49,196 nucleotides of DNA from an uncultured Bacilli bacterium (GCA_944358165.1 CALVQS010000001.1:1-49196), one strand, 5' to 3'; counted from the stretch's first letter, positions 1-25,550 are shown. Numbers and translations are program-made. The notes: generated by a model not told the origin, from the sequence alone.

Positions 1-136
1 TAAAACCCCCTGAATCACTTCAGTAGTTTTAAACTACTCATAAAAAGAAAGCAGGCGCTTACCAATATGGATAACACTTCTAGTATATAATAAAGAGTGC
101 CAAAAAAGCAAGAACAAAAGTTCGACAAAATTAGAC

Positions 137-164
137 AAAAAATAATCCAAGCAAATTGCCTGGG
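137..164 (-). terminator. putative intrinsic terminator downstream of rmuC
   Basis: Minus-strand hairpin CCAGGC/GCUUGG (6 bp, one G-U) followed by AUUAUUUUUU, about 10 nt after the rmuC stop. Confidence 0.45.
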
Positions 165-174
165 TTTATTTTCT

Positions 175-1263
175 CTAATTATGAATTAATAGATCTTTGT
201 CATCACTCTTTAATTTATCTACCTCTACTTTATTAATAGTATCAAATCTCTTTGTAATTTTATCACTTGTCGTATTAAGTTCTTCTACACTCTTAGACAC
301 AGTATTAATATTACGAGCTAATTTATCCCATCTTTCCCTATATCGAGCAAATTCCACTGATAATTTATTTAACTCATCATGAATAATTTTAGCATACTTA
401 TCTCTTTCCATATTCTTCAAAATCATTTCAATTACGGTTAAAGTACTCATTAAAGTAGTAGGACTTGTAATCCATACTTTTTTTGAATAAGCATAATTTA
501 GTATATCAGAGTGATAAGCATTTACTTCTGCAAAAATTGCTTCTGCTGGTAAAAAGAGGATTGCTTCATTACTAGTCTCACCTGGAATAATATATTTGGA
601 ACTAATCGCATCAATATGTTTTTTAAAATCAATTTTAAACTGTCTTTCTGCAGCGGTTCTTTCTTCTTTACTAAGATTTTTATTGGTCATTTTCTCATAA
701 TTTTCAAGTGGAAACTTCGAATCAATGGCAATCGTTCCAAGTGGAGCTGGTGCATATAATAAAGCATCCGCTATAAAACCATTACTCATCTTATGTTGCA
801 AATCATAAATACCGGTATTTAATCCTCCAAAAGCATTTTCCAAAATAAATTGCAAATTTACTTCTCCAAAAATACCTCTTGTTTTCTTATCCGTTAATAT
901 ACTTTGTAAAGAGACAATATCTTCACCTAGACCATCTATTTTCTTTTGAGCTTCATCAATCTTCGAAAGTCTTTCAAGTACATTTGCAAAAGTCTTATTT
1001 GTTTTCTCCAAATTCTGATCCAATCTTTCGGTAACACGATTATTAATCTCAGTTAATTTCCTTTCTACTTTCTCATCTAAAGCATCAAAATCTTTTCTAA
1101 TATCACTAGCAAACTGTACTTTAAATTCCCCTATTTCTTTAACCATAGAAACTTCTAATTTACTAATACGATCCGTAATATCCATATTATTATTTTTCTT
1201 AAAATAGTTAGCAAGTAATAATATAATTGTTACAACTAATAATCCAATAATGACATATTCCAT
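175..1263 (-). CDS. rmuC: DNA recombination protein RmuC
   Basis: N-terminal TM helix, long coiled coil, and a C-terminal RmuC-type block (IDSKFPLENY ... LFLPAEAIF ... VWITSPTTLMSTL). Confidence 0.85.
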   Translation of the reverse strand: MEYVIIGLLVVTIILLLANYFKKNNNMDITDRISKLEVSMVKEIGEFKVQFASDIRKDFDALDEKVERKLTEINNRVTERLDQNLEKTNKTFANVLERLSKIDEAQKKIDGLGEDIVSLQSILTDKKTRGIFGEVNLQFILENAFGGLNTGIYDLQHKMSNGFIADALLYAPAPLGTIAIDSKFPLENYEKMTNKNLSKEERTAAERQFKIDFKKHIDAISSKYIIPGETSNEAILFLPAEAIFAEVNAYHSDILNYAYSKKVWITSPTTLMSTLTVIEMILKNMERDKYAKIIHDELNKLSVEFARYRERWDKLARNINTVSKSVEELNTTSDKITKRFDTINKVEVDKLKSDDKDLLIHN

Positions 1264-1274
1264 TTTTAAAACCT

Positions 1275-1853
1275 CTATTCTATCTTAAACTTTTTACTAA
1301 TAATTTTACTTATTACATAAGCAATGATTAGTAATATTCCAACACGAACTAAATAAATTGGATTTTTAATACTTTCAATCAAACTAACTCCTACAAACCC
1401 CCAGAAATAAACTAAAAATATTTTTCCAATTAACAAAGCTCCAATAAACTTTTTATAACTCATCTTTGATAATCCAGCTGCAATATTAACTAAAAAAGCT
1501 GGAGTAAAAGGAATTGCTATAATTGTAGTTAATTCTTCAAACTTCAAATTTGTAATAACATCAATGGTGTGTTCACTAATAATTCCCTCTTTTTTAATTC
1601 TCTTAAAAAGCCAAGTCTGTACTTTACAACGAAAAAGTAAAAAAGAAATAAAACAACCAATACAAGTAAAAATCCATGAAATAATAAATCCAAGTATATT
1701 ACCAAAAGCTAAAAAATTAAGAGTTATAAAAACAAAAAGTGGTAACACTGGAACCATTGATTCAATTAAAATAAAGAAGCAACCAACAATCGGCCCCCAA
1801 ATTCCTAATCCTTGTAGTGTTGTATCAATAAATGTATCTATTGCTTCAAACAT
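1275..1853 (-). CDS. TVP38/TMEM64 (DedA/SNARE-associated, VTT domain) membrane protein
   Basis: Polytopic 192-aa membrane protein with DedA-like layout. Family assignment is from recollection only. Confidence 0.65.
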   Translation of the reverse strand: MFEAIDTFIDTTLQGLGIWGPIVGCFFILIESMVPVLPLFVFITLNFLAFGNILGFIISWIFTCIGCFISFLLFRCKVQTWLFKRIKKEGIISEHTIDVITNLKFEELTTIIAIPFTPAFLVNIAAGLSKMSYKKFIGALLIGKIFLVYFWGFVGVSLIESIKNPIYLVRVGILLIIAYVISKIISKKFKIE

Positions 1854-1876
1854 AACTAATCACATTACTATTATAA

Positions 1877-1959
1877 TACATTTATAATAAAATTACACTC
1901 TAATTTATTTTAGAGTGTAAACAAATGATTTAAAAACTTATTCCAGTACACTGGAATAA
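1877..1959 (-). terminator. two consecutive intrinsic terminators after the AAA ATPase gene
   Basis: Minus-strand hairpin TTATTCCAGT-GT-ACTGGAATAA followed by GTTTTT (1938-1959). Then a perfect 11-bp stem TTACACTCTAA/TTAGAGTGTAA followed by TTTTATTAT (1886-1913). Confidence 0.6.
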
Positions 1960-1962
1960 CTT

Positions 1963-3156
1963 TTACTCTAACAACCAATCAATAATATTTTTATGAATAA
2001 TTCCATTTTGAGAATAATCTAATTTATCAGTAGAAATAACATATTTTGGATAATTATCTTGAATATGATTATAAGCTCCAAACTCTCTTTCTTCTGTATC
2101 TTTATTAGAAAGCGTATAAGTTACTTGATAATATTCGCGATTTTTATGTTTCGTTGCAATAAAATCAATTTCTTTTCCATTATTATTACCAACACTTACA
2201 GTATATCCACGGTAAATAAGTTCATTATAAACAATATTTTCTAAATAAGCACCAAACTGTGTCTTTTTATTAACATTTAAAATTTGTCCTAATCCTAAAT
2301 CAGTCAAATAATACTTATCCTTTCGAGAAAGAATTCTTTTCCCACGAATATCATAAGCAGAAACTCTTTGCATTAATAAAGCTTCTTCTGCATAATCCAA
2401 ACATTCATAAATCGTTCTAGATGAAACAGGTATATTTTCATTTTCAAACTCTTTTACCATATTCGCCGGTGAAAAAACTTGACTAGGATTCGTAACTAAG
2501 TACTCCATAACTCTTTGAAATAACTGAATATTTTTAATATTATGTCTTTTAACAATATCTTTTAAAACGATAGCATCAAACACATCCATCAAATAAGTCT
2601 GCATACCTTCCCTAGATTGAATTTCAAATCTTTGAGGAAGACCACCCCATAATAAATAATCATTAAACACTTCTTCTAAATCTTTTTTATCAGTAATTCC
2701 TTTTAGTTCTACTACTTCTCTAAAAGAAAATGGTGCTAGCCTAAAAGAAACATAACGCCCTGATAACAAAGTTGCAAGCTCTCCTGATAATAATTTAGAA
2801 TTAGAACCCGTAACAAAAATAGAAACATTATCTGTTGCTTTAAAAGAGTTGATTGCCTTCTCCCAATCTTGAACCATTTGAATTTCATCAAAGAATAAAT
2901 AATATTTTTGATTATCTTTAATTTTTTCTTTGATATAATTATGTAAATCTAAATAATTTTCAATAAAAGAAAAAGTAACATCTTCAAAATTTATATAAAT
3001 AATATGATCATCTAAAACATTTAATTCTTTAATTTCTTCTATAATTTGTTTTAAAAGAACAGACTTCCCGCATCTTCTTATACCTGTAATCACTTTAATT
3101 AAATCAGTATGATAAAATTCTCTTATTTTTTCTAAATACTTCTCTCTTTTAATCAC
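1963..3156 (-). CDS. AAA+ ATPase, AAA_14 + DUF4143 type (COG1373-like)
   Basis: Walker A GIRRCGKS and Walker B LFFDEIQ, with a C-terminal DUF4143-like region. GTG start preceded by AGGTGA. Confidence 0.8.
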   Translation of the reverse strand: MIKREKYLEKIREFYHTDLIKVITGIRRCGKSVLLKQIIEEIKELNVLDDHIIYINFEDVTFSFIENYLDLHNYIKEKIKDNQKYYLFFDEIQMVQDWEKAINSFKATDNVSIFVTGSNSKLLSGELATLLSGRYVSFRLAPFSFREVVELKGITDKKDLEEVFNDYLLWGGLPQRFEIQSREGMQTYLMDVFDAIVLKDIVKRHNIKNIQLFQRVMEYLVTNPSQVFSPANMVKEFENENIPVSSRTIYECLDYAEEALLMQRVSAYDIRGKRILSRKDKYYLTDLGLGQILNVNKKTQFGAYLENIVYNELIYRGYTVSVGNNNGKEIDFIATKHKNREYYQVTYTLSNKDTEEREFGAYNHIQDNYPKYVISTDKLDYSQNGIIHKNIIDWLLE

Positions 3157-3178
3157 AAAATCACCTTCTATTGTTTAT

Positions 3179-3207
3179 ATAATATCACAGTATTGATTAA
3201 CTGTCAA
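3179..3207 (-). promoter_or_regulatory. sigma-A type promoter for the AAA ATPase gene
   Basis: Minus strand reads TTGACA, a 17-nt spacer (with TG of an extended -10), then TATTAT, about 25 nt upstream of the RBS. Confidence 0.5.
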
Positions 3208-3256
3208 TATATTTTCGTGCAGAAAAATATACGCAGATATTATCAACTATATTTTT

Positions 3257-5239
3257 CTACAGAAAAACAAAATTGATGATAATACAAAGACTAACTCCTA
3301 CTAAAAGAGGAATAAGAACACTTAAAAATGTATAAAATTTACTACCCGTTTCTTTATGAATAGTAAGTAATGTAGTAGAACATGGAAAACGATACAAAAA
3401 TAAAATAAGAAAACATAAAGCTGTTTTAATGGTCCAACCATTTTCTACTAATATATCTTTTAGCATACTTAAATTATCCATATCAATTAAAGTGGAAGTA
3501 TTTAAGTAACACATAAGTAAAATTGGAACAACAATCTCATTCGCTGGAAATCCCAAAATAAGAGCAAGTAAAATAACACCATCCAGTCCAAGAAATATAC
3601 CAATAGGATTAAGTGTATTTACAAGATAAGTTAAAACAGGAACACCATGAATAGAAACATTTGCAATAACCCAGATAAGTACCCCTGCTGGAATAGCTAC
3701 TTTTACAGCTCGACCCAAAACAAAGATGGCTCTATTTTTAATGCTATACCAAATGCTTGCCCAGATATTTGGCATACGGTATGGTGGCAGCTCTAAAGTA
3801 AAACTAGATGGTTCTCCTTTAAGAATTGTCTTTGATAAAATAAGACTAACCAAAAAAGTAAGAAGAATTCCTAAAAAGAGAAATCCGGTAAGAATAAGTG
3901 CACAAAAGAAAGCTCCATAAACTTGATCTAATCCCACAAAGAAAATCGTTATAATAGCAATTAAACTAGGAAACTTCCCATTACATGGCATAAATACATT
4001 GGTTAATATAGCAATAAATCTCTCTCTTTTAGAATCAATAATTCTTGCACCTGTAACTCCAACCGCATTACAACCAATTCCCATACACATCGTAAGTGCC
4101 TGCTTCCCACAAGCTCTGCATTTACTAAAAGCTCGGTCCATATTAAAAGCAATTCTAGGAAGTACCCCCAAATCTTCTAAGAAAGTAAAAATTGGAAAGA
4201 AAATAAGCATTGGTGGCATCATCACCGATACAACCCAATAAAGAGTTTTATAAACACCATGAACAAGCAAATCTACTAAAAAATTTGGTAAAGATAAAAA
4301 CTCTAAAAAGTTCATAATAGGTGCTTCTAAAGAGGAAAAGAAGGAAAAGAGCAAACTAGATGGATAATTAGCCCCAACAATCGTAAGATAAAAAATAACA
4401 AACAAAAACAAAAGCATAATGGGAATCCCCCATATTTTACTTGTAAGTATTTTATCAATCTTTCTTGTTTTCTCATCAACTCTTGGTATATTTACAACGT
4501 CCCTCAGTATTTCTTTTACTTTTTTAGAGATATGAATACATACTTCTAGATGAACATCCAAATCTTGTTTTTTAACAAAATCTTTTTTAACAATTCCTAA
4601 GTTTTTAAATTGGTTAATATAACTTTGATTGTTTTCTAATATTTTTAAAGCAATCCATCTTTTATTATATTGATTGGTATCAAGATTCTTAGAAATATCA
4701 TCAATAGAATCATTTAATACTCCATAATCCAGTTTTAAATAATCTTGTGATTTGCTTTCATTTATAGCAAAGAGTAAATCGGTTAAACCAAGCTTTTTTT
4801 TCGCACTAACGAGCACTACCCTACTACCAAGTCTTTCTTCTAATAGTTTTTTATTGATGGTAATTCCCCTTTTTTCTGCCTCATCTATTAAATTAATACA
4901 CACAACAACATTAGGACATATTTCTTTGGTTTGTACTGCAAGATGAATTCCCTTATTTAAACTAGTCGCATCACATACCACAACAGCAACATCAAAATCC
5001 TGAAACACAATAAAATCGGTCGCAACGACTTCTTCTTTGGATTTACTAATTAAAGAGTAGGTTCCTGGTAAATCATAAAAAGTATAGCAAGTATCTAAAT
5101 ATTCACATTCTCCTCTGCTAATACCAACCGTTTTGCCAGCCCAATTTCCTGTATGTTCATGATTATGAGTGAAAGCATTATAAATACTAGACTTACCAAC
5201 ATTTGGTGTTCCCACAAGAACAACTTTAATCTCTTTCAT
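3257..5239 (-). CDS. feoB: ferrous iron transporter FeoB
   Basis: N-terminal G-domain (GTPNVGKS, DLPG, NLID) fused to a large polytopic permease domain. Overlaps feoA by 14 nt. Confidence 0.95.
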   Translation of the reverse strand: MKEIKVVLVGTPNVGKSSIYNAFTHNHEHTGNWAGKTVGISRGECEYLDTCYTFYDLPGTYSLISKSKEEVVATDFIVFQDFDVAVVVCDATSLNKGIHLAVQTKEICPNVVVCINLIDEAEKRGITINKKLLEERLGSRVVLVSAKKKLGLTDLLFAINESKSQDYLKLDYGVLNDSIDDISKNLDTNQYNKRWIALKILENNQSYINQFKNLGIVKKDFVKKQDLDVHLEVCIHISKKVKEILRDVVNIPRVDEKTRKIDKILTSKIWGIPIMLLFLFVIFYLTIVGANYPSSLLFSFFSSLEAPIMNFLEFLSLPNFLVDLLVHGVYKTLYWVVSVMMPPMLIFFPIFTFLEDLGVLPRIAFNMDRAFSKCRACGKQALTMCMGIGCNAVGVTGARIIDSKRERFIAILTNVFMPCNGKFPSLIAIITIFFVGLDQVYGAFFCALILTGFLFLGILLTFLVSLILSKTILKGEPSSFTLELPPYRMPNIWASIWYSIKNRAIFVLGRAVKVAIPAGVLIWVIANVSIHGVPVLTYLVNTLNPIGIFLGLDGVILLALILGFPANEIVVPILLMCYLNTSTLIDMDNLSMLKDILVENGWTIKTALCFLILFLYRFPCSTTLLTIHKETGSKFYTFLSVLIPLLVGVSLCIIINFVFL

Positions 5240-5453
5240 ATTTCACCATCACCCCTCTAGCATCGGTATTTCTAAGAGCAATCATTCCCCCATTAATTAG
5301 ATAAGCCTTAGGATCATGAAAAGGACTAATTAAAACACATTTTACTTCCTCACCCGGAATAAATCCTAAATCTAGTAATCTTCTTCTCATGGGATGCGAC
5401 AAAAGCTCCGTAATAACAACTTCTTCATTTAACTTTATTTGATCTAAACTCAT
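5226..5453 (-). CDS. feoA: FeoA (SH3-like ferrous iron transport protein A)
   Basis: 75 aa with an RRRLLDLGFIPGEEV motif, immediately upstream of feoB. RBS AAGGAG. Confidence 0.9.
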   Translation of the reverse strand: MSLDQIKLNEEVVITELLSHPMRRRLLDLGFIPGEEVKCVLISPFHDPKAYLINGGMIALRNTDARGVMVKYERD

Positions 5454-5480
5454 AATTTTTAATCTCCTTCATAAAATATA

Positions 5481-5498
5481 TTAGTTTCCTTAAACTAA
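5481..5498. promoter_or_regulatory. candidate DtxR/MntR-family operator in the feoA / regulator divergent region
   Basis: Palindrome TTAGTTT-CCTT-AAACTAA with perfect 7-bp arms. It resembles the DtxR box TTAGGTTAGCCTAACCTAA and lies 28 nt upstream of the feoA start. Confidence 0.45.
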
Positions 5499-5523
5499 CA
5501 ACTACTGTATTTTATGAATAAGA

Positions 5524-5955
5524 TTGGATTTGGTTTATATGAATGACAATTTTTATACGCTAACAACCTATATACATAATAAAAATAAAATCACATACCC
5601 CATGGAAGATTATTTAGAAATGATTTATCGCAAAAAGAAAGAAAAAATCACCATTACTTCTCTAAGTCATGATTTAAACATCAAAAAATCATCTTGTAGT
5701 AAGATGATTCATAAACTAAAAGATTTAAATTTAATAAAGATCGAAGAAAATAAAATATTATTAACAAGCATTGGCTTAAAAATTGCCTACAATCTCTACC
5801 ACCGTCATCAAGTATTAGAACATTTCTTAAAAAATTTAAATCAAGAAAACTTTGAACTAGCTCAAGTCGAAAAGCTAGAACACTTTATTGATGAAGTTAC
5901 TCTAAGAAATCTTGAAAAATTAACCAACCAAATAATCAAGCAAAACGGGAGCTAA
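5524..5955 (+). CDS. DtxR/MntR-family metal-dependent transcriptional regulator
   Basis: MEDYLEMIY... winged-helix N-terminus followed by a DtxR-type dimerisation region (HRHQVLEHFL). The start is ambiguous: TTG at 5524, ATG at 5539, or ATG of MEDYLE further in. Confidence 0.75.
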   Translation: MDLVYMNDNFYTLTTYIHNKNKITYPMEDYLEMIYRKKKEKITITSLSHDLNIKKSSCSKMIHKLKDLNLIKIEENKILLTSIGLKIAYNLYHRHQVLEHFLKNLNQENFELAQVEKLEHFIDEVTLRNLEKLTNQIIKQNGS

Positions 5956-6618
5956 AATAATAAGCAACATAATTGGTACAAAAAAGATAACACTAATAAT
6001 ACTTACCTTTGTTGGTAATTTATTAATTTCTGCTTTCACATCAAGCATTTCTTTATTATTCAAGAAATCTAATTGATTTGTCAAAGAAGTAACGATACTA
6101 TTTCCAAAAGTATTGGACTCAATCATATTTAAAATAGCATTATTGATCGCTTCACTAGGTATTCTTTTTTTCATATCATTTAAAGCTTCATTCAAACTTT
6201 TACCCAATTTAACTTCTGCTAAAGTTTGCTTAAACTCATCGGATAATTCCGAATCAATATTGGATGTCGTAAGATGAAGAGCATGTCCTAAATTTCGACC
6301 AGATTCCAAAGTAAGTAACAATACTTCAAAAAAGAACAAAGCTTCTTTTTCAAGTTTTTTAGCCCTTCTCTTTATCGGATAATCCAAAAGCACTACTTCA
6401 CTTAAATAATAAAACAGGATAGCTACAACGGGAGCTAAAATATATCCAAAATCGGAAGTAATTAATAAAATAACAAACAAAATAAGAGAAATAAGAACTC
6501 GAAAATTAAGAATTAAAAACAAATTATAATTATGATTTACACCCAAAAGTTTAATTTTATCTTCGATTCTCTTTATCGTTCTTTTCGGATAAATTTTTAC
6601 AAACAAACTTTCTTTCAT
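5920..6618 (-). CDS. tadC: Tad/type II secretion F-family membrane protein (TadC-like)
   Basis: T2SSF-like helical domain flanked by TM segments, last gene of the tad operon. Overlaps tadB by 4 nt. Confidence 0.7.
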   Translation of the reverse strand: MKESLFVKIYPKRTIKRIEDKIKLLGVNHNYNLFLILNFRVLISLILFVILLITSDFGYILAPVVAILFYYLSEVVLLDYPIKRRAKKLEKEALFFFEVLLLTLESGRNLGHALHLTTSNIDSELSDEFKQTLAEVKLGKSLNEALNDMKKRIPSEAINNAILNMIESNTFGNSIVTSLTNQLDFLNNKEMLDVKAEINKLPTKVSIISVIFFVPIMLLIILAPVLLDYLVG

Positions 6619-7619
6619 ATTCTTACCTCCAAAATCTTCTTAATAAGAATAATATATAAAATGTATAAAAATAAAATTACACTTAAAATAACAATTCCTA
6701 AGAAAGAAGTAAATAAAGGCATAAAGTAAGTTGGATTTAAAATGAAAATAAGAAGGACAAAAATAAATGGTAAAAAAGCTAAAAACTTAAACACAAACCT
6801 ACTAGAACTCGTTAAACTATATAATTCATTTCTTAAGTTTTTCTTCTCTAAAATAGATTTTTCTAATCTCGAAAATACACTTACAATATCGCCACCTGTT
6901 TTATTTAAAAGAGTAAGACAAGTCGTAATATATTTTGCATCTTCTAATTTTACTCTCTCATAAAACCGATTAAACACAACATCCAAACTAAGTCCATAAC
7001 TAATATCCAAATAAATCTTTTCAAATTCATCCTTTATTGGCCCATCCAATTCTTCTTTTACCATTTCAATCGCTTGGATAATACTCTTCCCACTTGCAAA
7101 AGCATTATTCATAATAATAATTGCTTTTAACAAATCATCTTCAATTCTTTTTCTTTTTTGATTAAATTTCATATTTAAAAAGAAATCAGGTAAAAAGAAA
7201 GTAATAATTAAAACAAGGAATAAAATCATTCCATCAAAATCATGATAATGCATAATGAAAGTAACAAGCCCTAAAATAAAAACAAGGAAAGTACAAACAA
7301 ACTTAATCGTTACATAATCCATTCCCTCTTTTTGTCCTCTCACATCAAAAGGAATAAACTTTTCATACTTTAAAGCATACTTACGTAAAACTTGAGATTT
7401 TTTGAATAATTTTGATCCAAAACGAACAAACTTCCAAACATAAAAGCCAAGTTCATCAAAGAAAGAAACTTCATGATCTTTATTAGATGTAAGTGCAAAA
7501 GAAGAAAGTCTTTTTTCAAGCCGTAAAGTCTTAGACAAACGAAGTAGATAAAGCGCTACTAAAACTGGAACTAAAATAATAAGTACTTGTAAAAATCTTA
7601 CTCCGTTCATCTTTTTCAC
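6615..7619 (-). CDS. tadB: Tad/type II secretion F-family membrane protein (TadB-like)
   Basis: T2SSF-like domain and TM segments, directly downstream of cpaF. Confidence 0.7.
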   Translation of the reverse strand: MKKMNGVRFLQVLIILVPVLVALYLLRLSKTLRLEKRLSSFALTSNKDHEVSFFDELGFYVWKFVRFGSKLFKKSQVLRKYALKYEKFIPFDVRGQKEGMDYVTIKFVCTFLVFILGLVTFIMHYHDFDGMILFLVLIITFFLPDFFLNMKFNQKRKRIEDDLLKAIIIMNNAFASGKSIIQAIEMVKEELDGPIKDEFEKIYLDISYGLSLDVVFNRFYERVKLEDAKYITTCLTLLNKTGGDIVSVFSRLEKSILEKKNLRNELYSLTSSSRFVFKFLAFLPFIFVLLIFILNPTYFMPLFTSFLGIVILSVILFLYILYIILIKKILEVRI

Positions 7620-11804: not shown

Positions 11805-13079
11805 CTATTCTTTAAATTCAAAAACATAATCACAAATTTGTACTTCATCTCCAGGCTTTGCTCCAAGTCTTTCTAATTCCTCATCAACACCCATACCTTT
11901 TAACTTACGAGCAAAACGAATAACACCTTCTCTTTCATCAAAACGAGTCATCTTAAAGAGTTTCTCTAACTCAGCTCCTTCTAAAACCCAAACATCATCT
12001 ACTTTTGTAATCGTAAAAGGTCTTTCATTTTTAAATTTATAAGTAACATGACTCATCATTTCCTCATCACTATAAAGGTTTTCGTCACAAGTAGTATCTA
12101 ATAAATCGGCAAGCTTTTGCATAAGTTCATCAAACCCGGTATTGGTAACACTACTAACAGGAACAACAAGTACATCTGGATAAGCTTTCTTGAATGCTTC
12201 TAAATTTTTAGGAGCATCTTCTAAATCCATTTTATTAGCAATAACAATTTCCTTCTTTTTAGCTAACTTCTCACTATAATCGAGGATTTCTTTACGAATA
12301 ACTTGATAATCATGGATTGGATTTCTTCCTTCCACTCCCCCCATATCAATTACATGAGCAAGCACTCTTGTCCTCATTGCATGTCTTAAAAACTTATGAC
12401 CAAGTCCAACACCTTCACTAGCACCCTCTATAAGTCCCGGAAGATCAGCCATAACAAAACTTCTACCATCTTTTAATTTTACAACTCCAAGATTTGGAGA
12501 TAATGTTGTAAAGTGATAGCTAGCAATTTTCGGAGTTGCAGCACTAATCATAGATAAAATGGTAGACTTACCAACACTAGGAAGGCCAACTAACCCAACA
12601 TCTGCAATCATTTTAAGTTCTACTTTTAAAACTTTTTCTTCTCCAGGTTCTCCTAGTTCACTAAATTTTGGAGCGGTATCGCTTTGAGTTCGAAAGCTGG
12701 CATTTCCTCTACCTCCACGTCCTCCATGAGCAACCACAACTTCATTATTTTCACCAACTAAATCAGCAATAACCAAATTAGTATTAGCATCTATTACCGT
12801 AGTACCTTCTGGTACCTTTACGATAATATCTTCAGCATTAGCACCATTTCGATTAGAACCTTTCCCATTTTCTCCCTTTTTTCCTTTAATTATTTTCATA
12901 TATCTTAAATCAATTAAAGTCTTTAAACCTTTATCCACTTGAAAAATAATACTGGCACCTTTTCCACCATTCCCACCATCTGGTCCTCCCATAGGAACAC
13001 ACCATTCACGACGAAAAGAAGTGCAACCATCTCCACCTTTTCCAGCTTCTACTTTAATTGTCAATTCATCTACAAACAT
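11805..13079 (-). CDS. obg: GTPase Obg/CgtA
   Basis: Glycine-rich Obg fold (MFVDE...GGDGCTSFRRE), G-domain GLPSVGKST / DLPG / NKMD, and a C-terminal OCT domain. Confidence 0.95.
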   Translation of the reverse strand: MFVDELTIKVEAGKGGDGCTSFRREWCVPMGGPDGGNGGKGASIIFQVDKGLKTLIDLRYMKIIKGKKGENGKGSNRNGANAEDIIVKVPEGTTVIDANTNLVIADLVGENNEVVVAHGGRGGRGNASFRTQSDTAPKFSELGEPGEEKVLKVELKMIADVGLVGLPSVGKSTILSMISAATPKIASYHFTTLSPNLGVVKLKDGRSFVMADLPGLIEGASEGVGLGHKFLRHAMRTRVLAHVIDMGGVEGRNPIHDYQVIRKEILDYSEKLAKKKEIVIANKMDLEDAPKNLEAFKKAYPDVLVVPVSSVTNTGFDELMQKLADLLDTTCDENLYSDEEMMSHVTYKFKNERPFTITKVDDVWVLEGAELEKLFKMTRFDEREGVIRFARKLKGMGVDEELERLGAKPGDEVQICDYVFEFKE

Positions 13080-13147
13080 ATTTAAACACCACCTATATCA
13101 TATCACAAAAAGTATATTTTTACTATTCGTATATACTTATTTTATTT

Positions 13148-13732
13148 TCAATTATTTATATAGTATATCTCATTAAATCTTTCTATTGGAACCATAGATA
13201 TATTTTCCATATAGATTGGCTTTTTAAACTCAACTAATCGATTAACACGATTACTAGCCATCCAACTATTAGGAAAACAATAAATCGTTTTATAATCTTT
13301 CTTATCGCTTTTTAATCCTAAAAGACAACAAATATCTTTTTCATACATTTTCATTAAACCATAATCTCCATCATATAAAGAACTTGTACTTTTAAATTTT
13401 AAACTGTATAAAGAAGTATTAAAACCCTTTAATAAATCTAAAATATTAGAAAAAGTAGTCATTCTTAATTTCAATAAATATTTTTCCTTTGTTTGATTTT
13501 CTAAAATATGATTAAATTTCTCTAAATTCTTTTTTATATATTTATATCTTTTATCCTTAGATTTTATATGAGTTGGAAAATAACGATCAAAGTTTTTAAT
13601 TTTATGTAAGCCAACTAAATGATAAAAGTGATCATTACGAAACATAATATAAATATATCCTTTATCTTTACGACTAACAATAAAAACAAATTTTTTTAGT
13701 TCTTCAAAAGTGTTAATTAATTCTTCTAGCAT
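13148..13732 (-). CDS. orphan hypothetical protein (possible BECR-fold / PBECR-like nuclease, very tentative)
   Basis: Intact 194-aa ORF with AAGGGGG RBS, its own downstream AU-rich hairpin plus T-run, and its own upstream promoter and leader. The HLVGLHK segment loosely recalls PBECR-type nucleases, from memory only. Confidence 0.55.
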   Translation of the reverse strand: MLEELINTFEELKKFVFIVSRKDKGYIYIMFRNDHFYHLVGLHKIKNFDRYFPTHIKSKDKRYKYIKKNLEKFNHILENQTKEKYLLKLRMTTFSNILDLLKGFNTSLYSLKFKSTSSLYDGDYGLMKMYEKDICCLLGLKSDKKDYKTIYCFPNSWMASNRVNRLVEFKKPIYMENISMVPIERFNEIYYINN

Positions 13733-13745
13733 ACCCTACCCCCTT

Positions 13746-13779
13746 AAAGATAAAAGGACCTATCTAAAAAGATAAGTCC
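13746..13779 (-). terminator. intrinsic terminator at the 3' end of the leader RNA
   Basis: Minus strand reads GGACUUAUC-UUUUUA-GAUAGGUCC (9 bp, one G-U) followed by UUUUAUCUUU. It ends 13 nt before the RBS of the 194-aa ORF. Confidence 0.6.
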
Positions 13780-13912
13780 CATGGTAGAAGCCTAAATTTG
13801 CATTAGGCAAAAAGCCTTCTATTTTGTGTTTAACCTATTACTAGGCCGCCGAAGCTAGGCTGGGACTACCAACTCCCGTCATTAATAATATGCTACATCG
13901 TAACCTTATTAT
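13746..13912 (-). ncRNA. unclassified structured 5' leader / cis-regulatory RNA (or small RNA)
   Basis: Local GC enrichment in an otherwise AT-rich intergenic region. Contains a C(UUCG)G tetraloop hairpin, a GCCUAA/UUAGGC hairpin, and a GGGA...UCCC hairpin whose 3' arm AGUCCCA can instead pair with UGGGACU (the 5' arm of the terminator). The 5' end is uncertain: about 13959 from the consensus promoter or about 13912 from a second TGnTATAAT box. Confidence 0.4.
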
Positions 13913-13965
13913 TATCTAAATTATATCACACGAATAAAAATGTGTAAATTAATTTAGTAAAAACT

Positions 13966-13994
13966 ATTATAATCTACTTTTTTATGCTTGTCAA
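13966..13994 (-). promoter_or_regulatory. perfect consensus sigma-A promoter
   Basis: Minus strand reads TTGACA, exactly 17 nt, then TATAAT. A second extended -10 box (TGATATAAT) lies at 13920-13928. Confidence 0.6.
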
Positions 13995-14023
13995 TTTAAA
14001 ATTCAAATAAATTATAAAAAAGC

Positions 14024-14202
14024 GTTACAATTCACAGCTGATTTTTGCTGTATTTACAAGTGTTTAACTGAAAGTTATAACCTAAAATCAACTGTGAATA
14101 AATATTTTTACATAATTTCGAAAATAGTTAATCAGATTATAATTCTTAAATTTCTCCTAAAATAAAGAGAATTGCAATTTTAAAATGGCTGTGAATTGTA
14201 AC
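14024..14202. mobile_element. 179-bp MITE-like element
   Basis: Perfect 15-bp terminal inverted repeats GTTACAATTCACAGC (14024-14038) and GCTGTGAATTGTAAC (14188-14202). These are flanked by an identical 8-bp direct repeat AAAAAAGC (14016-14023 and 14203-14210). No ORF inside. Confidence 0.7.
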
Positions 14203-14228
14203 AAAAAAGCAATCAACTTTCATTGATT
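14203..14228 (-). terminator. intrinsic terminator of the cdaA-cdaR operon
   Basis: Minus strand reads AATCAA-TGAAAG-TTGATT followed by GCTTTTTT, 10 nt after the cdaR stop. The T-tract is one copy of the MITE target duplication. Confidence 0.55.
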
Positions 14229-14237
14229 AGCCTTTCT

Positions 14238-15608
14238 CTATTCATTTGATATCCGAACTCTTACCGTAGATGATACTACAAAGTTAAGTCTTGGATCATC
14301 ATTTTCAATTTGAACCTCAACATCATACTCTCCAGGAGTATAACCAGTTAAATCAATATAAGCATTAATACTATCAGCATCTACTCCATCAATAACAGAT
14401 TGAACACCTTGAACAATAACTGGAACACTACTTGTACCAACAATATTAGCAGTATATCCACTTGCTAAATTTCTACTAGATATGGTTGATAATTCTACTT
14501 CTTTTTGTCTTTCATCTCCAAATGTAACAGTAATACTAGCATTATTTTCACTTAAAGCCCGTACCCCAGTTGGACGAGAAATTGTTACATTATAATTTCT
14601 AGTACTATTGGCACCCTCTCCATCAACATTAATTGTAACTGGAACACTTGTAATACCACTAATTTGTTCTTCATCACCATAAATAGTTACCGAATAATTA
14701 TTATTATTATTTATCAAAATCGATGCAATTGCTCTACCAGTAACTAAAGAACCAGTCGTCCGAACCTCAATTGGAACACTCTTTGAATAAGTGTCTAGTG
14801 TAACGGTTGCACTAAGAGTCGTTGGCACAATCTCAATGTTATCTAGTACTTCACCATTAGAATCATACGCTACTAAACGAACATTATTAACGGTAAAAGT
14901 TCCAACATCAGTTAGAGCATCATCACTTAAATCGATTAAAGCCTTAACAGAAGCAATATTATTAATTGCATCTTCACTACCCTTAACAACAACTTCACTT
15001 CTCTCAAGTTCTACGCTCTCAACACTTAATTCTTCACTTAAACTTTGTTCATTAATTAAATCATAATCAATGGTTCTTGTAACACTAATCTTATCTTTAA
15101 TTGTTACGGTAACATAAGAAGGATCTAATTTATAATCAATCGAATCAATTGATTTCGTATAAGATAAATAAACACGATAAGCAGAATCTCTTGCTTCGTA
15201 ATCGGATAAATCCAAAATAACATTATTTGTTCCTAATTGCTTTGCTAAATAAATATCACTCTTTCGACCAATTAAAACAATATCAACAGTCTCAGGTATT
15301 CCTTCCACTACATATGCTTCTTCATTATAATTAACCGTAACTGGTACATTCGTAATAACCTCAGCTTCTGATTCCACCAAAGTAATTACTCTAGAATCAA
15401 TTAATACAAACACAATAACTGCCAAAATAAGTGAAACATAAATCATAAAATTAGGACGATTAAAAATATAATCTAACTTAATATTTTTACTACGTAAATA
15501 CTCTCGAATATTAAAGATTAAACGACTAATTGGTGTAACAATAAGCTTATCAATAATCCGATAAATTGCTTTAAAAAACTTACCAATCGCTTTTCCAATT
15601 TTCTTCAT
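14238..15608 (-). CDS. cdaR: YbbR-domain protein CdaR (regulator of diadenylate cyclase)
   Basis: N-terminal TM helix followed by repeated YbbR-like beta domains. Its start overlaps the cdaA stop (ATGA-type junction). Confidence 0.85.
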   Translation of the reverse strand: MKKIGKAIGKFFKAIYRIIDKLIVTPISRLIFNIREYLRSKNIKLDYIFNRPNFMIYVSLILAVIVFVLIDSRVITLVESEAEVITNVPVTVNYNEEAYVVEGIPETVDIVLIGRKSDIYLAKQLGTNNVILDLSDYEARDSAYRVYLSYTKSIDSIDYKLDPSYVTVTIKDKISVTRTIDYDLINEQSLSEELSVESVELERSEVVVKGSEDAINNIASVKALIDLSDDALTDVGTFTVNNVRLVAYDSNGEVLDNIEIVPTTLSATVTLDTYSKSVPIEVRTTGSLVTGRAIASILINNNNNYSVTIYGDEEQISGITSVPVTINVDGEGANSTRNYNVTISRPTGVRALSENNASITVTFGDERQKEVELSTISSRNLASGYTANIVGTSSVPVIVQGVQSVIDGVDADSINAYIDLTGYTPGEYDVEVQIENDDPRLNFVVSSTVRVRISNE

Positions 15609-25475: not shown

Positions 25476-25550
25476 GCAGGTATAGTACAGTGGTTAGTAT
25501 GCGACCTTGCCAAGGTTGAGACGGCAGTTCGAATCTGCTTACTTGCTCCA
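25476..25550 (+). tRNA. tRNA-Gly (anticodon GCC), CCA encoded
   Basis: Hand-folded cloverleaf: acceptor GCAGGTA/TACTTGC, D-stem GTAC/GTAT, anticodon stem CGACC/GGTTG with loop TTGCCAA, 4-nt variable loop, T-arm GGCAG-TTCGAAT-CTGCT, discriminator T plus CCA. Confidence 0.93.

Follow-up and report, generated by a model that had tools for sequence, protein, structure and literature searches.

Type III toxin-antitoxin loci are defined by the order promoter, RNA, Rho-independent terminator and toxin, and phages are known to escape them by means of an antitoxin-like RNA, pseudo-ToxI (PMC5086642). In a Clostridioides difficile prophage, the antidote of the toxin AbiF is one structured RNA from the adjacent gene, RCd22, which acts in cis and in trans by direct RNA-protein contact (bioRxiv 10.1101/2025.04.15.648962). 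The RNA motif drum (RF02958) is highly conserved, has its own promoter and a 3' Rho-independent terminator, and shows a "compelling association" with a protein encoded nearby; it has been known since 2017 and was assigned no function (Weinberg et al. 2017, PMC5737381). PBECR4 (PF18813) is a predicted BECR-fold RNase family; in the literature searched, we found no functional study of either drum RNA or PBECR4. Here, we describe an RNA that lies directly upstream of a gene assigned to a PBECR4 subfamily in a stretch of 49,196 nucleotides (nt) from an uncultured Bacilli bacterium (GCA_944358165.1, CALVQS010000001.1:1-49196), hereafter called the window. Positions are counted from its first letter unless a locus is named, and the RNA and the gene are both encoded on the minus strand. 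This window RNA is a conserved, structured small RNA gene that belongs to a family without an Rfam entry. Based on its comparative genomics, we give an even chance to the reading that it serves as the type III-like antitoxin of the predicted PBECR4 nuclease, with phage-borne copies acting as decoys.

The conserved core of the RNA was delimited with a covariance model, R1, built from 53 distinct sequences. The model matches the window at 13780..13883 with 117.1 bits (E = 5.7e-25) as a single copy, and it finds exactly one RNA copy per locus in a total of 67 related loci, with 59 loci in the first search and 7 further loci derived from the protein. In the model-based alignment, 92.2% of the cells are paired compared to 85.9% in shuffles. 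The covariation score amounts to 0.243 versus 0.140 for shuffled alignments; 0 of 500 shuffles reach this value, and the slid controls stay at or below 0.112. Three helices covary, P2, P3 and the long-range helix S2; covariation at homologous loci had been named as a check in a first-pass annotation of this DNA made from the sequence alone. That annotation had further regarded the RNA as unclassified, and Rfam 15 indeed returned no match for the region 13600-14260, neither at the gathering thresholds nor at E <= 10.

At its 5' end, the core starts with the hairpin S1, GGGA/UCCC, at 13862..13877 (13877-13874 with 13865-13862), which had already been read from the window sequence and is 98.7% paired and almost invariant among the relatives. 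Only the most divergent locus, L029, shows GACG/CGUC instead. Because GGGA/UCCC hardly varies outside L029, the helix is plausible and unproven. The loop of S1 is UGGUAG (13871-13866), the 5' strand of S2, and it covaries with the 3' strand CUACCA (13782..13787), which closes the core. S2 is 93.3% paired; its pair 14-174 is seen as GC, GU, AU and UA, and pair 17-171 as AU and GC. Since the 5' strand of S2 is the loop of the S1 hairpin, S1 and S2 together form an H-type pseudoknot. The segment CUACCA overlaps with an earlier proposal, in which the hairpin GCCUAA/UUAGGC was nested in an outer helix UAGAA/UUCUA. The inner hairpin exists and covaries; the outer helix is unsupported, as it is 73% paired, shows no covariation and is equalled by 399 of 500 shuffles, and CUACCA pairs instead with the loop of the first hairpin. 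The inner hairpin is our P3, GCCUAA-UGCAAAU-UUAGGC, at 13790..13808 (13808-13803 with 13795-13790), which is 93.9% paired, has 4 of 6 covarying pairs and is present in 53 of 53 sequences.

Between the pseudoknot strands, conserved and variable elements alternate. The segment CCCAGCCUAGCUUCGGCG (13847..13864) is invariant at 14 of 18 positions across the 53 distinct sequences and nearly so at the other four, and it is kept in the RNA copies that phages carry without the gene; AAACACAAAAUAGAAG is likewise almost invariant across the family. A C(UUCG)G tetraloop hairpin had been proposed in this part of the RNA. Its sequence is invariant, but a neighbouring G/U change is uncompensated, so that the pairing is not established. 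The hairpin P2, GCCUA-GUAA-UAGGU, follows GGCG at 13833..13846 and is highly variable in sequence: all 5 pairs change on both sides, and 44 distinct hairpins occur in the 53 sequences. P2 is followed by a highly conserved A-rich junction, UAAACACAAAAUAGAAGG (13815..13832), the motif of which is also given as ACACAAAAUAGAAG.

Several identities of the RNA were considered and rejected. A reading of GGGA-GUUGGUAG-UCCC as the D-arm of a tRNA is contradicted by the loop, in which the GG is not conserved and which covaries with the 3' strand of S2. For the copies located in phage tRNA arrays, ARAGORN and Rfam call the flanking tRNAs and not the RNA itself, and a phage RNA-only copy compared with Rfam matched solely these tRNAs; a tRNA or tRNA-like identity was therefore discarded. 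A housekeeping RNA (signal recognition particle RNA, 6S, RNase P or transfer-messenger RNA, tmRNA) was dismissed because Rfam gave no match and because the RNA is strictly linked to a gene that is mobile.

This linkage was examined from both sides. Starting from the protein, we obtained 29 loci from species-representative genomes, all of them metagenome-assembled genomes of uncultured gut Bacilli type. The RNA is located 120-220 nt upstream of the gene in all 29, and the upstream 140-220 nt match the window leader by blastn in each of them, even at about 50% protein identity and in one case at 30%. The seven further protein-derived loci also carry the RNA upstream. Starting from the RNA, a search of viral and metagenome contigs with a 23-nt pattern added 30 loci. 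A PBECR4 homologue, or its visible start, lies downstream of the RNA in 21 of them, while six consist of the RNA only in phage-type DNA and three have other downstream content. Downstream of the RNA in L046, we found a Peptidase_S51 gene. In L038 (4815-5543), a PemK/MazF-type toxin of 170 amino acids (aa; Pfam E = 8.7e-11) comes after the same RNA and terminator, and the gap of ~115 nt between RNA and toxin holds no protein antitoxin gene. The sibling contig L059 has the same upstream sequence, followed by PBECR4 where L038 has PemK/MazF. Additionally, the PBECR4 gene is frameshifted, stopped or degraded beside an intact RNA in five loci, and no intact PBECR4 gene without the RNA was present among the loci examined.

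The surroundings of the pair, by comparison, vary from locus to locus. None of the other loci examined contains obg, ybbR or cdaA, the neighbours of the pair in the window. In several loci, the pair is inserted between prophage lysogeny genes (helix-turn-helix repressors, Peptidase_M78) and a phage integrase; in others, as in the window, the pair is found by itself, with unrelated housekeeping genes on either side (such as ligA and pcrA). Protein-coding neighbours are thus not conserved, which leaves the RNA as the one partner that the gene always has, and the RNA-PBECR4 pair moves as a unit, in prophages or alone. Flanking direct repeats were considered as insertion scars, and none was convincing. 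Two loci deserve mention for their context. In L029 (4557-6996), which has retained the RNA at 30% protein identity, PBECR4 is followed by a 322-aa open reading frame (ORF) and a 493-aa P-loop ATPase-like ORF, a neighbourhood that suggests a defence-island setting. In the chromosomal locus L221 (3319-5001), a gene-free gap of ~1.7 kilobases (kb) is found before the RNA-PBECR4 module, and the RNA fills only ~250 nt of it.

The partner gene in the window had been described as an orphan. According to the ORF listing, it occupies 13148..13745 including the ribosome-binding site AAGGGGG (13745-13739), and its reading frame runs from the ATG at 13732 to 13148 (13732-13148). The orphan label does not hold for the encoded 194-aa protein: 160 homologues were found, the majority with a precomputed match to PF18813, and 24 of 32 aligned subfamily members matched PF18813 in hmmscan, with a best E of 1.1e-10. 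For the window protein itself, the precomputed table lists PF18813.7. Judged by these relatives, the protein is assigned to a divergent PBECR4 subfamily. The alignment contains five invariant residues, H38, H43, K44, S118 and S156. In the AlphaFold2 (AF2) model of the protein, which is confident (predicted local distance difference test, pLDDT, 91), H38 lies within a predicted helix (33-40) and S156 within a strand (149-160). PHROGs yielded one weak match of unknown function (E = 0.0065) and BFVD one significant match, to an unnamed protein, with RegB-like and MuF-C matches at E > 0.1. The subfamily is small, as a profile search of 1.84 billion representatives returned 75 matches, many of which are fragments. 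Among GenBank phages, neither the protein nor the RNA had a match.

RNA-only copies were encountered in phage-type DNA. In four loci, the RNA lies between the tRNA genes of large arrays: L032, a 73-kb viral contig from IMG/VR, L054, L058 and L047. In two others, the RNA is surrounded by phage-like ORFs: L039 and L031, the latter a 90-kb viral contig from IMG/VR. None of these six loci has a terminator or a PBECR4 gene in the parts read. The part of L054 that was read comprises 23 tRNA genes, with the RNA-only copy at 3520-3632. In L047, a phage-like metagenome contig of 130 kb, the region 76-6908 contains 13 tRNA genes including a predicted tRNA-SeC, as well as a tmRNA gene, and the RNA is located at 2854-2986. 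By eye, a hairpin similar to the terminator hairpin described below follows the RNA in L047, without a U-tract. A protein-based scan of the viral collection detected the PBECR4 subfamily in one contig only, and in none of the RNA-only contigs.

With respect to its expression, the window RNA has the features of an independent transcription unit that ends before the gene. Two tandem promoters were found by consensus scan, in agreement with the first-pass annotation. The distal one, TTGACA-17-TATAAT at 13966..13994, is perfect (12/12), and the proximal one, TTTACA-17-TATAAT at 13920..13948, scores 11/12 and has a TG-extended -10 box. At least 20 related loci have a 6/6 -35 box with a spacer of 16-18 nt at the corresponding distance, ~80-92 nt 5' of GGGAG, and a TGnTATAAT-like box is present 36-43 nt 5' of GGGAG in most related loci. 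The transcript is predicted to begin with an AU-rich hairpin, P0 (AUAAUAAG..GUUAC/GUAGC..AUAUUAUU), at 13882..13913. A counterpart of differing sequence is situated 3-5 nt 5' of the core in nearly all cellular loci (mean z = -1.9, 48 loci). Both promoters and the 5' hairpin are found again in most cellular loci. The intrinsic terminator announced before the gene was recovered by the terminator scan at 13746..13780, with 11 pairs in the stem (13780-13755) followed by the U-tract TTTATCTTT. It is the sole terminator-like site within 13100-14300, where shuffles lead one to expect 0.2. A terminator-type hairpin with a T-run was detected in 46 cellular loci and is absent from 7 distinct phage RNA-only sequences. 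Overall, the predicted transcript of ~165 nt consists of the 5' hairpin, the pseudoknotted core of ~105 nt and the terminator.

The sequence of the terminator stem (13755-13780 in the window, with equivalents in L001-L057), approximately GGRACUUAUC/GAUAAGUYCC, is unusually conserved and shows a few compensatory variants. The stem may therefore belong to the functional RNA and be more than a mere stop signal. The GC-rich core noticed beforehand is likewise real, with a GC content of 0.43 in 13800-13899 compared to 0.18-0.25 in the flanks. The 228-nt leader folds with -66.9 kcal/mol (z = -4.2), and 0 of 200 shuffles were equally stable. Since the leader folds far better than its shuffles and the described features are present, these initial observations on the locus are correct. 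From reading the translations, we take the neighbours to be housekeeping genes, with Obg downstream (11805-13079) and a YbbR-like gene and cdaA upstream. In the whole window of 49 kb, Rfam matched nothing but a single tRNA gene at 25476-25547 (61.7 bits).

The following mechanism would account for such an arrangement. The terminator would let only a fraction of the transcripts proceed into the nuclease gene, so that the RNA is present in large excess. The RNA would bind and neutralise the PBECR4 RNase in the fashion of a type III antitoxin. A stop in transcription, as an infecting phage might cause, would lead to decay of the RNA and thereby release the nuclease, so that the infection would be aborted. 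Phages with large genomes, in turn, could escape by carrying the RNA alone, inside their own tRNA gene arrays. We rank an antitoxin function first because of the type III layout, the absence of a conserved protein partner, the mobility of the pair, the asymmetric decay of RNA and gene, the exchange of PBECR4 for a PemK-like toxin and the phages with the RNA alone. A type III-like arrangement lacking the repeats of ToxI had been mentioned in the first-pass annotation as a secondary possibility, and it is the reading that the comparative data support best.

A number of points weigh against this function. We infer toxicity, RNase activity and RNA-protein binding alike from sequence. As many of its unpaired nucleotides are invariant, the RNA could also be one that binds a ligand or acts as a catalyst, and Tandem Repeats Finder reported no array in 13733-14000, its single array being located inside the coding sequence. 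The assignment as an RNase rests on the predicted family: a direct Pfam scan of the window protein by hmmscan gives no family at E <= 1, and neither PADLOC, which has no model for such a system, nor NCBIfam assigned the protein to a family. Foldseek against the PDB likewise returned no significant match for the structure model; the best one, at E = 0.36, was a toxin of a toxin-antitoxin system, and RegB and MazF scored less well. Because there is no significant match among solved structures, RNase activity is a prediction at the level of the family. Furthermore, frameshifts in metagenome assemblies can be artefacts, which could apply to some of the five loci with a decayed gene, and the RNA-only phage contigs were read in part.

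The RNA might instead be a cofactor, guide, sensor or substrate that forms an active ribonucleoprotein with PBECR4 and is needed for its activity or targeting. Linkage and co-mobility would be identical to those of an antitoxin. Long invariant single-stranded segments and a pseudoknot are also typical of RNAs with a demanding biochemical role, as Weinberg et al. argued for drum and similar motifs with a 3' terminator (PMC5737381). However, if the function of the RNA were to arm a nuclease used in defence, it would be difficult to see why large phages carry RNA-only copies, and an intact RNA beside a decayed nuclease gene, as in the five loci described above, fits an antidote better. The terminator, moreover, lowers the expression of the nuclease relative to that of the RNA, which suggests that an excess of RNA is required. 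We therefore consider a cofactor role unlikely, albeit the strongest of the competing explanations.

A cis-acting leader of the nuclease gene, that is, a riboswitch, an attenuator or a processive antitermination element, was the interpretation originally given to the locus, with a competing terminator and antiterminator. In the family, the RNA is always upstream of the gene and on the same strand, with the terminator between them, and its conserved unpaired nucleotides resemble those of an aptamer. The proposed switch relied on the segment AGUCCCA, which can pair with UGGGACU in the 5' arm of the terminator. This complementarity exists in the window and in close relatives, but it is not conserved in the other loci: the longest duplex that AGYCCCA can form with the 5' arm of the terminator has a mean length of 4.7 in 46 loci compared to 4.5 for shuffled arms, and the competing antiterminator thus finds no support in the family. 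In addition, the core helices do not overlap with the terminator, six loci hold the RNA without a terminator or a PBECR4 gene, and no Rfam riboswitch was matched. At least five locus types (L017, L019, L034, L036, L041) show, by eye, a promoter-like TTGACA between terminator and gene. Taken together, a cis-regulatory function of the RNA appears improbable. Leaders of this kind share with the window family a structured, conserved RNA between promoter and gene and an intrinsic terminator behind it, and they differ in that the window family has no conserved alternative pairing, also occurs as RNA alone and matches no known class.

The proposal of an RNA antitoxin gains breadth from drum. A drum-like pattern retrieved viral contigs, 11 of which hold genuine drum RNAs with 92-102 bits. 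In 5 of these 11, an ORF that matches our PBECR4 profile (E = 1e-17 to 1e-13) begins a few tens of nt or less behind the drum RNA with its terminator. These drum RNAs directly upstream of PBECR4-family genes are located in L205 (4658-4771, minus strand), L209, L211, L212 and L206. Two of the drum-linked ORFs were submitted to Pfam and gave full-length matches to PF18813, with E = 8.2e-41 and 5.6e-33. In L216 (reoriented 1428-3877), the place of PBECR4 behind the drum RNA and terminator is taken by two ORFs, one of 460 aa whose N-terminus is P-loop ATPase-like and one of 247 aa; these ORFs may represent another defence cargo at the same site. A phage contig of 115 kb contains a drum RNA without an adjoining PBECR4 gene in the part read.

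A further RNA, family B, was found upstream of a distant PBECR4 clade (P0166 and its relatives). It is a different conserved RNA of ~160 nt, located between a TTGACA promoter and a terminator, and it is represented by L067 (4795-4990), L070, L073 (4826-4986), L076, L077 and L078. Its conserved blocks include GGTCGGTCTG and TTTTCCGCAAGCAGA, and its surroundings are either an integrase and genes of restriction type or, where the module is by itself, housekeeping genes. Family B RNA has no Rfam match above threshold. One locus showed a full-length sub-threshold match to drum of 16.6 bits, which we treat as a lead only because, at E <= 1, four other loci of family B do not show it. The 15-mer TTTTCCGCAAGCAGA, scanned against viral contigs, mostly produced chance matches. 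In L073, a T-box-like leader (5927-6098; 49.5 bits, gathering threshold 93) lies after the family B module and before genes for a LOR-domain protein and an alanyl-tRNA synthetase.

Covariance models gave no cross-matches between the window RNA and either drum or family B, in the case of drum in both directions; for the drum model, the region 13600-14260 had no match at E <= 10 (gathering threshold 43 bits). Given that drum RNAs precede canonical PBECR4 genes in an arrangement like that of the window, the window RNA appears as a new, third class of this system. A wider proposal, that drum, family B and the window RNA are all RNA inhibitors of solo PBECR4 RNases and constitute a new type III-like superfamily with decoys in phage tRNA arrays, seems to us possible, at somewhat less than an even chance. 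The three RNA classes also bear on the weakest alternative, a small phage RNA in its own right (such as a regulatory RNA or a stable RNA associated with tRNA arrays) that marks a cargo site with PBECR4 as the commonest cargo: varied downstream genes (PemK-like in L038, Peptidase_S51 in L046, an AAA-ATPase-like ORF after the drum of L216) and the RNA-only copies in phages speak for it, but the RNA-PBECR4 unit also occupies many unrelated chromosomal sites without other phage genes and each RNA class accompanies its own PBECR4 clade, which points to functional coupling and not to a shared insertion site and makes this explanation very improbable.

The comparative analysis adds that drum RNA, without an assigned function since 2017, and PBECR4, a predicted nuclease, belong together, that at least two further RNA classes outside Rfam take the same role for other PBECR4 clades, and that phages carry the RNA on its own. 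The resulting model is compact, with one RNA and one 194-aa protein, and bears on the "sophisticated" RNAs that end in a terminator. If the antitoxin function of the window RNA is true, it would extend RNA-antitoxin systems to a new toxin fold and provide a natural example of RNA decoys in phage tRNA arrays. If drum, family B and the window RNA are indeed classes of one inhibitor, the drum motif and the PBECR4 family would both gain a function.

Compared with the described systems, the locus combines familiar and new traits. With the type III systems ToxIN, CptIN and TenpIN, it shares the order of elements, which is found in the window and in 46 related loci, and furthermore a predicted endoribonuclease, a pseudoknotted RNA and the occurrence as a mobile module in phages and prophages. 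It differs in both components. Type III antitoxins consist of tandem repeats of ~36 nt, whereas the window RNA forms one unit of ~105 nt that contains several helices. Type III toxins have the ToxN/Kid-MazF fold, whereas the candidate toxin of the window is assigned to the BECR fold (PBECR4); it had no PADLOC match to the ToxN, AbiQ, CptN or TenpN families, and its subfamily matches PF18813 instead. AbiF/RCd22 and AvcID can be likened to the window locus in that the antitoxin is a single RNA. Their protein family (Abi_2/AbiF) and RNA motifs are different, and they were tested experimentally, whereas the window system is known here from its sequence.

The window RNA also resembles drum. Like the drum RNAs linked to PBECR4 in the viral contigs examined, it is located upstream of a PBECR4-family gene, with the same order and spacing and a 3' terminator. 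The drum motif UUaACCaCAAaCcGaaUAG, its most conserved stretch, resembles the window junction UAAACACAAAAUAGAAGG at an analogous position, which we regard as a lead only, and a conserved A/C-rich stretch, with ACCaCAAaCcGAA compared to AACACAAAAUAGAA, is found 5' of a small hairpin within a closing helix in both. The architectures are distinct. In drum, P1 encloses a hairpin of 12 bp and is followed by P2, which encloses ACCaCAAaCcGA and a small hairpin, resulting in two successive stems with one hairpin each, whereas the window RNA has a pseudoknot and two hairpins in one multiloop; the 5' halves differ as well. The partner of drum is a canonical PBECR4, that of the window RNA a member of the divergent subfamily. 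Thus, a drum-type RNA with a linked protein and a type III-like module are known in outline, and what the window contributes as new is the RNA family itself.

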